A DNA stretch of 64,000 nt from Eledone cirrhosa (Eukaryota). The notes under the pieces were generated by a model. It searched no databases, was not told the DNA's origin, and saw only the letters and a program-made list of their open reading frames with translations. The position numbers were made by a program, and so were the translations under genes. Below are positions 35,668 to 56,386 of the stretch, in pieces (the first letter of the stretch is position 1; the number at the start of each line of letters is the position of its first letter). The stretch lies in assembly GCA_964016885.1 (NCBI GenBank), contig OZ024743.1, positions 244,156,001 through 244,220,000 of the forward strand, written 5' to 3'.

Positions 35668-36345
35668 ATAAAAGACGTAAAATAAGAAAATTTAAAAAAA
35701 ATTTTTTAAAAATTTAAAAAATTAACTTACTTACTAGCATTAGCGTACATCTGTACGCATATGTTAGTAGATATACTAAATTCTCTATATTTATCTCCAA
35801 ATTACTTATTGTTGAGCAAACCTGCCAAAATCACTACTAATTTATTGGTGTGATAGTAGGCTCCTGTCATCTTACCATCCCACTCCTACCGACTAGCCTC
35901 AGTGTCACGTGATTGATTCTTTAGAATCTGCCATTTGACCAGAGACAGCGAGCTTTTCAGTGCATGGAATCCAGTCCCCGCTAGCTGTTCCATCTACCGA
36001 ATTATTATTATTTTTATATGAGTCCCCAGTGTCCGCGCATTGCCTGGAGACTTAGCTGAGAATAGACTCCCTGATGACGCAATGAATTCTCGACAGTTAT
36101 ATTACGTAACTGTCTTTATCCCATTGCAGAAACTAATTAGTTTGAGTGAAAATTTTAGTAAGTAAGTTAATTTTTTAAATTTAAAAAAAATTTTTTTTTA
36201 ATTTTCTTATTTTACGTCTTTTATATTATTGTTCTGCATCCTCCTGCATTGAACCACCTAGGTACTATGACATAACCTGTGTATTTGCTAGCATTAGCGT
36301 ACATCTGTACGCATATGTTAATAGATATACTAAATTCTCTCTCTC
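35668..36345 (+). mobile_element. Non-coding hammerhead-bearing element (Penelope pLTR / retrozyme-like) with an inverted 5' segment and terminal direct repeats, inside (TA)n
   Basis: 35668-35736 is the reverse complement of 36156-36226; 35734-35786 is directly repeated at 36288-36340; hammerhead at 36066-36147. Confidence 0.75.
36066..36147 (+). ncRNA. Type I hammerhead ribozyme, extended stem II
   Basis: actcc-CTGATGA-cgcaatg..[gacagtta/taactgtc]..cattgca-GAAAC-taatta-GTT-tgagt; palindromic stem III AACTAATTAGTT. Confidence 0.8.
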
Positions 36346-36408
36346 TCTATATATATATATATATATACGGGATAACAGGTTATCGTTATAGGATCAAGCG
36401 AGTAGCGA

Positions 36409-36522
36409 TCTTGTGTTAGTTGGCTTTACTAGTACTCTACCCGTCGGTTGCACACATATATATATATATATATATATATGCAACCGACGGGTAGAGTACT
36501 AGTAAAGCCAACTAACATAAGA
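36409..36522. repeat. Inverted repeat with 44-bp arms around a (TA)n spacer
   Basis: 36409-36452 and 36479-36522 are reverse complements with 1 mismatch. Confidence 0.9.
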
Positions 36523-37628
36523 TAGATTCACTCACATCTATTGCCTAACTGCAGTGTTTTGAAATCAATAAACAATATTAATAAATCAATGAACAATCTT
36601 AATAAATTACTGATTTAAATATATTTTTGTTTTCTTTTTCTTGAGATGTTCAGTATATTAGTGACAGATATATTGGTTGTATATCTATATATAAATTTCT
36701 GCGATTCTGTCACAAGACGTAAGATAGAGGAGTAGTTTGACTACCTCATACTACTCCCCTCTCTTTTTTTCTGCTGCCGGCGTAAATGCATGTGGGTGTA
36801 AAAGGAACGACGTGGGTGGTGAAAAAACAATAGCAAAATAGCGGCTGGCATTCTATTTGTTATGGTGTGTATGTGTGTATGTCTTTGTGTGAATGTATGG
36901 GTATGTTTGTGTGAATATATAAGTGTGTTTGAGTGAATGTATGTCTGAGTGTGTATTTTTGAAAGAATGTCTGTGTTTACACGTTTATATATATATACTC
37001 ATACATATAAAAATATCATTGGTGCTGTTATATGTGTGCAGATGAAGAACCTTTTGTGGATGCGCATGTCATTGATGTTAACTCTACTTTGTGTGTAAAT
37101 GTGTGTGTGTGTGTGTGTGTGTGTGTGTGTGTGTGTGTGTGTGTGTGTGTGTGTGTGTGTGTGTGTGTATGTGTGTGTGTGTGTGTGTGTGTGTATGGCT
37201 GGGTGGATGTGTTTATGAGTGTTATCAGTCTGTTTGTGTTTGTGCGATTAGTGTATGCGCATAAGCTTATATGACTGGCAGTATCCCTGAGTACACACAC
37301 ATATATATATGTAACGGCTGACTAACTTTTTCCCGTTTTCTTTCTTTTCTTACTCCCGTCTGTCGTCTTATGTCTTAGCTCACGCTAGCATTCTTCTTTC
37401 TCTCTCTCTCTCTCGTTCTATATATCGATGAAGGACTAACGTCCGAAATGTTGATACTCTTTTCCTACTATATCAAGAGTTAAACTACTATATATCATAA
37501 TTGTAAACATTCATGGTTTTCCCTTGTATTCTTTGTTGTTGAATTTTCTTATATATATATATATACATATATATATATATATATATATATATATATATAT
37601 ATATATATATATATATATATATATATAT

Positions 37629-37902
37629 GAAAAACGTAAAATAAGAAAATTATAGTAATTATCTTACTTACTTAAATTTCACTCCAACTAATTAGTTTCT
37701 AAAAGGGAATATACATGGAGATCATGGAGAAACCTTTTCGTCATCAGGGAGTCATTCTCAGCTAAGAGATATATTTTACGTTTTTCATATAATTGTTCTG
37801 CATCCCCTTGCATTGAACCACAAAGTTACTAAGACAAAACCTATATATTTGCTTGCATAGGTATAGATCTGTATATATATGTTGGTAGATATACTAATTC
37901 TT
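37629..37902. mobile_element. Second member of the 35.7-kb hammerhead element family: inverted arm plus direct 3' arm, between (TA)n tracts
   Basis: 37629-37766 matches the reverse complement of ~36050-36222; 37775-37902 matches 36209-36340 directly. Confidence 0.75.
37681..37752 (-). ncRNA. Type I hammerhead ribozyme, extended stem II
   Basis: Minus strand actcc-CTGATGA-cgaaaagg...cctttta-GAAAC-taatta-GTT-ggagt; stem I actcc/ggagt is perfect. Confidence 0.8.
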
Positions 37903-37926
37903 TATATATATATATATATATATATA

Positions 37927-52998: not shown

Positions 52999-53267
52999 TA
53001 CGTTAGTTCTTCACCAGGAAAGAGTAAAGTTCGGAGATAGAGGAGGTTAGCTTTATATGTTATAAAGTTTTATATCTCTCTCTCTATATATATATGTATA
53101 TTAAAACTTAGCTTCGGCATAACTGCATACATGCATATATGTGAATCTCGTATATCTAAATATATACGGTATGTTTAATAAATAAACATTTTGAAAGCTA
53201 AGCTAGGAATTGAAACGCTGGCGGCTAGTGCCGTTTAGTGGATTCCAGCAGAAGAAGGGGAAGATAA

Positions 53268-53306
53268 CTGTCTATGCATTTCGAGCTCTGGCTCTCATCA
53301 GGGCAG
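53268..53306 (-). ncRNA. Minimal type I hammerhead ribozyme
   Basis: ctgcc-CTGATGA-gagc(caga)gctc-GAAATGCATA-gacag; palindromic ATGCAT. Confidence 0.8.
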
Positions 53307-54696
53307 TGTGCCCCTTGCTCTCTGCTGGAATTTGAAACTAAATCAATTGTTGAAAATCATTTATAGGAAATGTCTTCTGGTTCAGTTATTACGCGCAAAC
53401 AAAGATTTCTTCAATTGTAGGTAGATGCTTAAATTCTTCTACTGAATCATCATCATCATCTTAGCGTGTACGGATCGCCATGATTCTCTCACTCTTTCCT
53501 TTCGTATGCATCCAGCGGTTATTTAGATAATATACATACCTTCTGATACAAGGCTTGAAAATCGGTTGAAGATATTTATCATTCTCCCGAGAGCCACTCT
53601 GCCAGGTTTACGGGGAATCCATGTATGTGCACTGTGGCAATGGTGATCTACGGCAGATGAATTCAAGTCAGAATCAACAGCATACCTCATCTGATGCGGA
53701 GCAGAAGAACGTTCTTGGCCAACGGACAGGATCACGAAATTCAGTCAGTAAACTACTGAAACTCATCTACATGTTGAGAATTTAACCATCGGAAGATTAA
53801 CATGACTCAAGCTCTATTGAATATGATAATTGCATAAAAAGTAAACCAGAAATTTAGTAAACGTAGTTTGCTGACTTAACTTTGTGATCCTGTCCGTTGG
53901 TCAAGGAGGTTCTTCCCTTCTGTATCATATGAGACACGCCGTTGATTCTGATTTAAATTCATCTGCTGTAGTTCACCATCCATCAGGCTGTAAACACATG
54001 GCTTCACCGTAATCCTGGCAAGGTGGCTCTCGAGTATTTTCCTGCATCCACATACGCATTCATGTTTGATACAATCTTTATGCATATTTATGAAAGTCAT
54101 GTGATGATAAAGGTACCACGTGATTCCCGATGAACAGGATTTGAAAACATAATTAGGATACTTGCAAAATGCTTCGTTCGTGTGTGAAGAATAATATACC
54201 CATGGTGAATATTTGGTTTAAACACACGATATCATTACCACTAGAATATGTACTTTAACTACAGTCAACTGTTATAACTGGCTCGGGGCTGATGCTTCGT
54301 TGTTATTCAGGTTCGTTTTCTCGGTATTTGAAACTTTTCATTTACCCAATGTTCTCTTTATCTTTTATACATATATACTCTCTCTCTCTCTCTCTCTCTC
54401 TCTCTCTCTCTCTCTCTCTCTCTATCTATCTTCCTCTCTCTCTCTCTCCCCCACACACACACACACTGTATATATATATATATATATATATATATATATA
54501 CCTACCTCAAGGGCGGTGCCCCAGCATGGCCCCAGTCGGATGGCTGGAACAGGTAAAAGAGTAAAAGATATATATATATAGGTATTCCATTTAAAAATGT
54601 TTTTCGTTTTGCCTTGTTTTCGTTCGTTGTATTGTCCTCTGTTGATTTTCCTAAGTTTATATATATATATATATATATATATATATTTTATAGAAG

Positions 54697-54749
54697 GAGC
54701 TTCTACAGGACTAGTACTGTTTCATTCAGATGAAATCTTCAGGAAGCTC
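54697..54749 (-). ncRNA. Type I hammerhead ribozyme
   Basis: gagcttc-CTGAAGA-tttc(atct)gaat-GAAACAG(tactagtc)CTGTA-gaagctc; 7-bp perfect stem I; element lies between (TA)n tracts. Confidence 0.8.
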
Positions 54750-56386
54750 TGCCATGTATTGAGTACCTTACTTACTGTGGTTATCCCCGACTCAACCCGG
54801 GACCTACGTATATATATATATATATGAGAACATATCCAGATTATCCGCCAACACTGCTGTGCAGAATCTTAACAGTATAACTATAGCAACTGGATCTAAA
54901 TCACGATATCATAACTTTAGTTTCATAACAACTTGATCTAAACTCTCAGTATCTTAATATTAGTACAATGTAATACAATATAACATCATAGCAATGTAAA
55001 AATAACAGCTGAAGAAAATTATCATACCGTGGACACTAGTGTCATTGTAATGCAGTGTAATGTAAAAATAGCCACTTAATTTAAACTCACGGACTCACAG
55101 TACAATGAAAATACTTTCTTAGTATAAAATCACAACGCCGTGAAACAAAATCTTGGTAGAACAGCAAAGAAAGCATCAATATTTTAAAACCAATACTATA
55201 ATATTTTTAACGTTATAATATAAGGCCAGCAATTTTATCGACCTCGTAAGTATGAAAGACAAAGCTAAGCTCGGGGGAATTTGAGCTCATATCGTAAAGG
55301 GGCGTAACTCTATGCTGCAAAGCATGGTATCCGACGCTCTACCGATATTGCCAATCCCTTGTAGTATAGCTTCCAGCAAAAAGACAGTAGATTGGCAGAA
55401 TCGTTAGAGTGTCGGGTAAAATGTTTTGCGGTATTAGTTGAGGCTTTTTATGTTTTGAGTTCAAATCCCATCAAGGTCAACTTTGTCTTTCCTCATTCCA
55501 TGTAGATAAAGAAAAGTACTGAAACTCAATATAATAGACTTTTCCCTTGAGGTGCAATAACAATACATATAATACAACACAGTAAAATGTCTTTAGATCT
55601 GTTATAAGATTTAAAAAATCAATTTTTGCAAACACCTTCTGTTATTAACATCAACTATTTTTTAGATACTATATTTTTTAACATTGATACCAGACCACAA
55701 ATTTAAAGGGAAGAGTATCACCTATTCAATTGCATCGACCCCAGGCCTTTTTTCTTACCGTTTAGTCAGGAAGGGAAAGATGATGCCATTTCAGACTCTT
55801 CGAGAAGTGAGAAAAGAAAAGAAGACGATTTAAACTGCAAAATTTGGTTCAGATGCATGCAACAGAATGGACTCTGTTAAAGACAACGAAGTATCAGGTA
55901 GATGTGTTAAGCTCAGTGATGGATGAAGTATACCACTCAAGTAGGCCACAGCAGGATTCGAACTCAGAACCCAAAGAACCGGAACAAATACCACAAAGCA
56001 TCCGCCTTACGCTCTAACAATTCCGCTAATCCACCGCCCTAGACAAGCATTTTATAGACCACAAAAGGATGGCAGGCAAAGTTGACCTCGGAAGAATTTG
56101 AATTCAGAGTGAAGAGAACCAGAAAAAATAAGGGTACGCTTTAACGACTTTGTTAACAAGACAGGTATTTTATCGATTCCGGAGAGATGAAAGGCAAATT
56201 TGACTTCGGCGTAATTTGAACGTAAAGGTCCGTAATTAAACATAGAACAAGATGTTCTGCTGATTCTGCCAATCTCTGTTCAGGGCATTTACTTCATTTT
56301 GATTTTGGAAGTTGTCGGTGTTTGCATCTTATCGGTCGATATAAAGTCATTAGTTAGGACCCCCAAAACAAAAAAATCTGTATTAC

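Follow-up and report, generated by a model that had tools for sequence, protein, structure and literature searches.

Type I hammerhead ribozyme motifs of nine families, probably of Penelope-like origin, in a microsatellite-rich region of the Eledone cirrhosa genome

Minimal hammerhead ribozymes of metazoans occur in the pseudo-long terminal repeats (pseudo-LTRs) of Penelope-like retroelements. They are described as massive in number, heterogeneous and for the most part solitary; as monomers they did not cut, and their dimers cut weakly (PMC4209133). Penelope-like insertions are drawn as a partial tandem with an inverted truncated copy and a tail at one end (PMC8557442 section 6, Fig. 2); the same paper ties the (TA)n bias to the CX2-5CxxC linker, and both microsatellite targeting and putative non-autonomous derivatives are already published there. 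Retrozymes are regarded as derivatives of pseudo-LTRs (bioRxiv 10.64898/2026.07.22.740005, Li, Clavereau and Pollet 2026). For PAc of Anolis, two internal initiation sites, used once AT-rich DNA has been nicked on both strands, account for the tail; the element's hammerhead needed protein to cut, insertion in vitro did not depend on it, and RNA sequencing gave no read ends at its site (PMC11167929). We analysed a stretch of 64,000 nucleotides of the octopod Eledone cirrhosa (assembly GCA_964016885.1, contig OZ024743.1, positions 244,156,001 to 244,220,000), called the window below, and in particular its region 35668-54810, where ten hammerhead motifs lie among (TA)n and (CA)n microsatellites.

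We propose, with a probability of roughly 0.8, that the ten motifs are type I hammerheads of nine families, likely the pseudo-LTR 3' ends of Penelope-like retroelements and of derivatives without an open reading frame (ORF), that Penelope proteins, which join a reverse transcriptase (RT) to an endonuclease, probably copied them into (TA)n/(CA)n tracts, and that they are now mostly decaying. A previous sequence-only reading of this DNA had listed the ten sites and assigned them to a community of self-cleaving elements mobilised by a Penelope protein such as the one encoded nearby.

All ten sites are complete motifs, and each coordinate quoted earlier corresponds to one end of stem I. We name them by their C3 positions: 36071+, 37747-, 42471-, 45214+, 46153+, 46293+, 46734-, 49348-, 53301- and 54742-, four on the plus and six on the minus strand. 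The core CUGANGA ... GAAA ... NUH stands in type I order in ten of ten; the NUH triplet is GUU in three motifs, AUA in three, GUA in two, and CUA and AUU in one each. Our relaxed descriptor required 4/5 pairs in stems I and II, a stem II of at most 100 nt and a self-complementary helix III with at most one unpaired position. It was composed after the sites were known and is tuned post hoc, so the shuffle and reversal controls matter. Over the whole window it returned nine matches, all among the ten. The remaining motif, 54742, fails on its weak stem II and passes a contiguous-stem descriptor; the other nine have at least 4/5 pairs in both stems. A strict descriptor found two sites without a bulge and five with one allowed, or six with a 3-bp stem I; bulges and one mismatch had to be allowed to recover the full set.

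Among 300 local dinucleotide shuffles of the 15,030 non-microsatellite bases, 291 gave no match and 9 gave one (mean 0.03, maximum 1), so that the motif density, a check proposed with the sequence-only reading, is far above that of shuffled sequence. Neither the reversed region nor the reversed window contained a match. CTGANGA cores passed the relaxed descriptor in 9 of 17 cases inside the region versus 0 of 64 outside, and passing motifs number 10 within 19 kb and 0 in the remaining 45 kb of the window. GAA followed by a palindrome of at least 8 nt occurs 12 times versus a shuffled mean of 1.6. When one core mismatch was allowed, one further full motif appeared, at 44258+ (44254..44340, A6 mutated, 8-nt palindrome; 0 of 100 shuffles), which had been missed before. 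The hammerhead motifs are thus real and far above chance; single weak sites, such as 45214 and 54742, could still be doubted as hammerheads.

The motifs differ in stem lengths and in their condition. Two of them form family A: 36071+ (36066..36147, H17 at 36142) has a 51-nt stem II region, a 10-nt palindromic helix III and a mismatched first stem I pair, and 37747- (37681..37752, H17 at 37686) has a 5-bp stem I, the identical 10-nt palindrome and a mismatch at the stem II base. Both show an unpaired A directly before G12, and their stem II sequences are very different, each of them pairing. The pseudo-LTR hammerhead of a coding element, 42471- (42433..42475, H17 at 42437), has a bulged nucleotide followed by a 7-bp stem II, and its helix III palindrome is broken. 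At 45214+ (45207..45255, H17 at 45248) a 10-nt palindrome goes with a stem I mismatch and a wobble-rich stem II. Family C is represented by 46153+ (46149..46205, H17 at 46201), with a stem II mismatch and a palindrome broken in the local copy. The family B motif 46293+ (46289..46324, H17 at 46320), with a bulged A, a 4-bp stem II and a 4-nt palindrome, is a textbook minimal hammerhead. On the minus strand follow 46734- (46677..46742, H17 at 46685; 8-bp stem I, mismatched stem II, palindrome with one G-U) and 49348- (49241..49353, H17 at 49246; 84-nt stem II region, 8-nt palindrome, one stem II mismatch). With a 4-bp stem II, a 6-nt palindrome, a mismatched second stem I pair and a long extended stem I (fold z -3.9), 53301- (53241..53330, H17 at 53273) is the most retrozyme-like of the ten. 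Finally, 54742- (54697..54749, H17 at 54704) combines a 7-bp stem I, a weak stem II with a mismatch and a 16-nt palindrome with one mismatch. An unpaired nucleotide after A9 together with a G10.1-C11.1 pair is found in 42471 and 46293; G10.1-C11.1 without the bulge occurs in 53301 and in the majority of family C reads, and the other hammerheads have A-U or a mismatch there.

As had been proposed, stem III is usually palindromic: the palindrome is perfect in 6 of the 10, paired through one G-U in one, and off by one position in three (42471, 46153, 54742). Helix III strands alone are predicted at about 0 kcal/mol, and the five longest of the intact or nearly intact palindromes have predicted homodimers of -9 to -15 kcal/mol, which would fit action as a dimer. 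Single-strand folding exceeded that of shuffles for only two of the ten hammerheads, as expected for motifs that need a dimer. Nine copies carry a mismatch or wobble in a core-adjacent stem or a broken palindrome, 46293 alone being free of defects, and none in the window has a same-family partner nearby on its strand (46153 and 46293, 140 nt apart, have different palindromes). The ten copies are therefore likely decayed stubs rather than working ribozymes: to judge by their pairing, such solitary and mostly mutated copies would cut poorly or not at all, and self-cleavage here is unlikely.

Masked self-BLAST of the window, used to group families, joins 36071 to 37747 (family A) and 46293 to worn copies near 1176 and 37426 (family B); the remaining hammerheads have no other match in the window. 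Since 36071 and 37747 are one family, the ten hammerheads make nine families, in keeping with the earlier claim of several unrelated elements. The two worn family B copies had gone unnoticed: one (1158..1263, plus strand) lies outside the region and has a mutated core, the other (37416..37495, plus strand) a core damaged at its 5' end.

Four read runs were mapped to 46022-46585 (564 nt) at 80% likeness. In the raw DNA run X21, 12,283 of 12,467,656 reads map to this stretch, and their depth resolves three separate units: family C (46040..46250, plus strand, with read ends at 46230) at about 400 reads, family B (46258..46413, plus strand) at about 7,900 at its hammerhead, and a third unit at 46420-46585. 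Assuming even coverage and a 2.8 Gb genome (size from PMC13282606), family C would have about 600 copies and family B about 12,000; since X21 is restriction site-associated DNA sequencing, we infer no more than orders of magnitude. Both read-tested families are high-copy interspersed repeats, which bears out for B and C the claim that the islands are multi-copy. Runs of two other organisms also contain family B, with 192 records on the 564-nt stretch in X4 and 9 in X5. At its 3' end, 2,227 X21 reads leave at 46413 and 832 at 46412, so that other copies pass straight into (CA)/(TA)n; its 5' loose read ends lead into pyrimidine-rich non-coding leaders. Among the 40 read variants listed, none falls in the core or stems of 46293 and one in its loop II. 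Family C reads restore pairs lost in the local copy: the palindrome at 46198 in 357/371 (211/216 + 146/155), the stem I pair at 46148 in 310/392 (160/222 + 150/170) and G10.1-C11.1 at 46189 in 222/378 (171/220 + 51/158).

In the third multi-copy unit (46420-46585), a CTGATGA core (46497) follows GAAAC (46470), as it would in a type II or permuted hammerhead. A permuted core order is also seen at 49356 on the minus strand, with 4 nt between the parts. Considered as type II hammerheads, neither 46470-46503 nor 49356 has convincing stem II pairing.

The family B core pattern had no match in viral contigs and 11 loci (L001-L011) in one metagenome assembly. They resemble the window over 25-47 nt around the core only, a 27-nt minimal core being selected by the pattern itself; their stem I is different, with pairing in most copies, and their flanks are unrelated to the window and nearly free of microsatellites. 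We rejected them as copies of the octopus family: they are another organism's elements and, their likeness being limited to the core, provide no test of the octopus families.

The anatomy of the insertions points to a Penelope-type origin. Family A copy 1 (35671..36335, plus strand) lies between (TA)n tracts and consists of an inverted 3' piece (35671-35736, minus strand) followed by a 1.1-mer of a 554-nt unit, whose 54-nt end segment is directly repeated (35728-35781 and 36282-36335) with the hammerhead between the repeats. The tail of one unit runs into the hammerhead of the next within about 290 nt, with no ORF between. The longest stop-free frame of the unit is 50 codons, and at least family A is therefore likely non-autonomous. 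Copy 2 (37630..37902) is built of head-to-head arms, a minus arm with the hammerhead and a plus arm with a tail of about 115 nt, and (TA)n stands at the end of each. The inverted arm ends at the same point in the two copies, and the direct arm extends about 115 nt further into the microsatellite. A head-to-head pair of 3' half-hammerheads at 44757..44940, absent from the sequence-only reading, forms a 105-nt hairpin (44836-44940) with G12 at 44901+ and 44875-, and its minus arm has a tail of about 80 nt. In (TA)n at 54686..54808, an insertion of about 125 nt has a minus arm with 54742 and a plus arm with a shared tail motif. Altogether, head-to-head arms, an inverted 5'-truncated arm and a tail at one end recur in these four insertions (35671-36335, 37630-37902, 44757-44940 and 54686-54808), which agrees with Fig. 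2 of PMC8557442 and with the pair of initiation sites in PMC11167929.

The tail motif, 11 nt long with similar flanks, is common to three diverged elements, at 44802-44812 (minus), 48620-48630 (minus) and 54756-54766 (plus), 50-70 nt from the microsatellite ends. The second belongs to a worn element end at 48558..48740 (minus strand), which has the motif in common with 44757-44888 and 54745-54808. With at most one mismatch the motif is found four times versus 1.12 expected, and 4 of 100 shuffles reach four. It is a candidate binding or initiation signal and, having been chosen after the fact, a lead only.

Microsatellite 3' ends, in (TA)n/(CA)n, are found for family B genome-wide (in reads), for both family A copies and for the inserts at 42295, 44757-44940 and 54686-54808; where the end is visible, the hammerhead lies about 20-200 nt from it. 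The share of (TA/CA)n is 9.2% in the region versus 0.4% and 0.8% in its flanks. Also in the region, at 36408-36523, an (AT)n tract separates two copies of the same element terminus, which face each other by their tails; no hammerhead lies within.

One hammerhead stands in a coding context. A 5'-truncated Penelope-like ORF (42677..43945, minus strand) contains the RT from motif B' on (YVDD), one in-frame stop, the thumb, a C-x4-CxxC linker and a CCHH GIY-YIG endonuclease, residues being assigned by eye. Behind its stop codon follows the 3' end, a pseudo-LTR (42295..42676, minus strand) ending in (TA)n, and 42471 follows the stop at a distance of 206 nt, where pseudo-LTR hammerheads usually sit. 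Together with the head-to-head arms and their tails, this supports the Penelope-type origin suggested earlier. Among 809 candidates the ORF had 15 matches, led by an RT protein of Octopus vulgaris with 61% identity across 71% of the query; the alignment of the ORF with full relatives covers residues 466-795 of P0001 (65%). Pfam gave nothing in the two ORF pieces and sub-threshold RT and GIY-YIG matches in 2 of 4 relatives; the 64-kb window holds no other Penelope protein remnant. As its translation reads, cut off at RT motif B' and with an in-frame stop, the coding element is dead. No 3' sequence is common to it and the five other families aligned, nor to any island in self-BLAST. It is therefore an example of the mobiliser class and not a demonstrated mobiliser, and the proposal that it mobilised its neighbours is not supported.

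The linker spacer of this element counts 7 residues to the next Cys, the short Nematis type, versus about 28-30 in Neptune (PMC8557442 Fig. S2). We considered the Neptune clade, since a CX2-5CxxC linker is present, and rejected it because the spacer is not long. In 11 of 15 relatives both RT motifs A and B' matched, and there 130-133 residues separate them, versus about 60 in canonical elements (count from PMC8557442 Fig. S1); the window copy breaks off before this part. P0001-P0014 are C-terminal-endonuclease Penelope proteins with an insertion of about 70 residues that is absent from the Nematis rows of that figure, and canonical Penelope-like elements are described in PMC8557442 as without a finger insertion. 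By their alignment, these relatives are possibly an unnamed Penelope lineage with a telomerase-sized finger insertion. A literature search on finger insertions in Penelope RT found nothing beyond PMC8557442 and a telomerase review.

From these data and the published systems, we infer the following course. A Penelope protein would bind the RNA a short distance downstream of the hammerhead, and its GIY-YIG domain with the linker zinc finger would nick AT-rich microsatellite DNA on both strands. Reverse transcription would begin at either of two internal sites, giving two outward-pointing arms, one longer by a tail. Synthesis would usually end early, and the hammerhead, being close to the 3' end, would be left behind by truncation. 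Because they share a target class, many families would gather in one microsatellite-rich stretch. Tandem transcripts of the source elements would be cleaved by the ribozyme acting as a dimer, paired through the palindromic helix III. Seven families may be 5'-truncated ends of coding elements, in addition to the one hammerhead of the truncated coding element.

Several results weigh against this reading or restrict it. An Rfam scan of the window at E<=1, which had been proposed as a check, returned 71 matches and no hammerhead, only microsatellite-driven microRNA matches; we therefore wrote our own descriptors. For eight families no cognate coding element was seen. The 554-nt unit of family A was seen in one copy and may have arisen by internal deletion; the non-autonomous nature claimed for all islands is thus supported for this family, not for seven others, and one motif is the coding element's own. 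Microsatellite association holds as insertion for the 46293 family. As proximity inside the region it is borderline (median distance from cleavage site to the next (TA/CA)n 158.5 nt versus 366 nt for random points, P=0.055), and neither 45214 nor family C has a microsatellite 3' end, 45214 and 46153 lying 608 and 386 nt from the next tract. Copy number was assessed for 2 of 9 families, B and C, through one read mapping, and its variants are 40 listed rows with 82 more beyond them. Two common family C variants turn G-C into wobbles, at 46152 (219/421; 175/245 + 44/176) and 46182 (223/368; 162/219 + 61/149). As to stem covariation, a check suggested earlier, family C has pair-restoring variants, and a formal test stayed within shuffles (71/500 for percentage paired, 80/500 for covariation) on 13 rows, 11 metagenome loci and 2 window copies, stems II-III being fixed by the search pattern in the 11. 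Finally, tails of about 80-115 nt are longer than the published 30-40 nt (PMC11167929).

The closest rival holds that every island is the 5'-truncated end of a coding Penelope element, that there are no non-autonomous families and that the 554-nt unit is a chance deletion; it differs from our reading solely in the share of non-autonomous families. The element at 42295-43945 is a direct case of it, heavy 5' truncation is typical (PMC8557442; PMC4209133), and O. vulgaris has 31 Penelope-like families with recently active insertions according to the parts of PMC13282606 covered. The family A tail that enters the next hammerhead within about 290 nt without an ORF, and the pyrimidine-rich non-coding leaders at the 5' loose ends of family B, speak against it, and we regard the strict form of the rival as rather unlikely. 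The opposite extreme, close to what the sequence-only reading had pictured, would make all islands dedicated, still active, retrozyme-like units that cleave their RNA, close it into circles and rely on the Penelope family of 42.3-43.9 kb. The ORF-less 1.1-mer, the family B units of at most 250 nt at very high depth, the canonical retrozyme-like fold of 53301 and the tail motif of three diverged elements would suit it. It has to face nine defective copies in ten, one hammerhead that is part of a coding element, no 3' end in common with the 42.3-43.9 kb element, no tandem with two hammerheads of one family in the window, and the published in vitro assays of 9 frog retrozyme dimers, of which only 1 showed cleavage (bioRxiv 10.64898/2026.07.22.740005); we judge it improbable.

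Host selection of a working ribozyme array, processing a transcript across the region, would explain the local density (10 in 19 kb versus none passing in the other 45 kb). Mixed strands and unrelated families are hard to reconcile with such a function, the density tracks microsatellite content, and the local copies are worse than the genome-wide majority where tested, which makes this very improbable. Chance matches in AT-rich, palindrome-rich DNA are refuted for the set of ten: a descriptor tuned on known sites, the lack of Rfam hammerheads and copies that mostly fold no better than shuffles would be as chance predicts, but the shuffle, reversal and outside-core controls, and the genomic copies that restore predicted pairs, leave this explanation a negligible place. 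The reading as mostly decaying Penelope-type 3' ends and ORF-less derivatives therefore remains the one we prefer.

The window as a whole is animal DNA rich in (TA)n/(CA)n, with mariner remnants, repeats resembling short interspersed elements (SINEs) and long interspersed elements (LINEs) of Tx1/L1 type. At 1850-16218 (plus strand) a very long acidic repeat frame, of 3,214 codons and then further pieces, with IEDSS- and IEEPSL-type repeats, is likely a giant host-gene exon. At 18879-34180 (minus) and 59441-59926 (plus) lie several LINEs of Tx1/L1 type, with endonuclease, RT and a frame resembling ORF1. Two worn mariner-like transposons lie at 34804-35545 and 37927-38821, the second with terminal inverted repeats of about 100 nt and an internal deletion. 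In an (ACC)-rich tandem array at 39890-41640, frames rich in Thr, Pro and His are open. Within (TA)n, short inserts richer in GC, at 47890-48070 and 48150-48400, resemble RTE-type 5' ends and may contain HDV-like ribozymes. Long imperfect inverted repeats at 53588-54032 and 55234-55510 look like a miniature inverted-repeat transposable element and a head-to-head SINE pair. A 390-codon frame at 61466-62638 (plus) has no Pfam match and is transposase-like by eye.

With this finding an octopod joins the animals that have Penelope-type hammerheads scattered in large numbers through their genomes. Knowledge of ribozymes and retroelements stays as it was; the kind of element is already known. The finding offers a route to classify repeats that protein-based and Rfam scans miss; the O. 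vulgaris annotation has 893 unclassified SINE families with recently active copies, and ribozymes are unmentioned in the main-text parts covered (PMC13282606). For asking what role Penelope hammerheads have, the long family-specific palindromes provide ready material, because predicted dimer pairing strength among intact ones varies from about -2 to -15 kcal/mol. A bolder and unlikely extension would see a large octopod community of ORF-less hammerhead elements among these 'unclassified SINE' families, riding Penelope proteins into microsatellites, with long helix III palindromes (8-16 nt) as pairing codes that let RNAs activate each other within one family only, and a common tail motif read by an undescribed Penelope lineage with a telomerase-sized finger insertion.

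No published hammerhead report for octopus or cephalopods was found in a literature search that left most subscription papers outside, and no cephalopod is named in the abstract, results, discussion and part of the methods of PMC4209133. The metazoan pseudo-LTR hammerheads of that study (Cervera and de la Pena 2014) are alike in type I topology, short stem I and palindromic helix III; their bulged nucleotide after A9 and G10.1-C11.1 pair are matched here by 42471 and 46293. Also alike are the many heterogeneous families per genome, mostly solitary, the opposite-strand pairs and a copy behind an RT/GIY-YIG ORF. In contrast to their 'small' helix III, palindromes here reach 8-16 nt in seven copies, stem II regions 30-84 nt in five, and the base before G12 is left unpaired in the two family A copies.

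Non-LTR retrozymes (Cervera and de la Pena 2020, PMC7229834; bioRxiv 10.64898/2026.07.22.740005) share short ORF-less units with a type I hammerhead, a proposed Penelope pseudo-LTR origin and the occurrence of monomers; the 554 nt of family A fall in their reported range of 51-972 bp. Unlike them, the window has no tandem of two hammerhead-bearing units, its best case being the 1.1-mer with one hammerhead, and it shows inverted arms and insertion into microsatellites. Craig et al. 2021 (PMC8557442) describe C-terminal-endonuclease elements whose linker is CX2-5CxxC (Neptune, Nematis, Hydra). These are alike in the order of RT and GIY-YIG, the linker zinc finger and CCHH; their hammerhead also lies close to the 3' end, and they too have (TA)n as target, a partial tandem, an inversion and a tail. 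Compared with Nematis, the linker of the coding element fits and the insertion of about 70 residues in its relatives does not, the clade being judged by linker comparison. The Poseidon element PAc of Anolis (Frangieh et al. 2024, PMC11167929) is alike in its two initiation sites with a tail and in AT-rich nicking on both strands, and differs in tail length. Altogether, the departures from known descriptions are the length of the helix III palindromes, the stem II inserts, the longer tails and the RT finger insertion; long-palindrome variants may already be described in Lunse et al.

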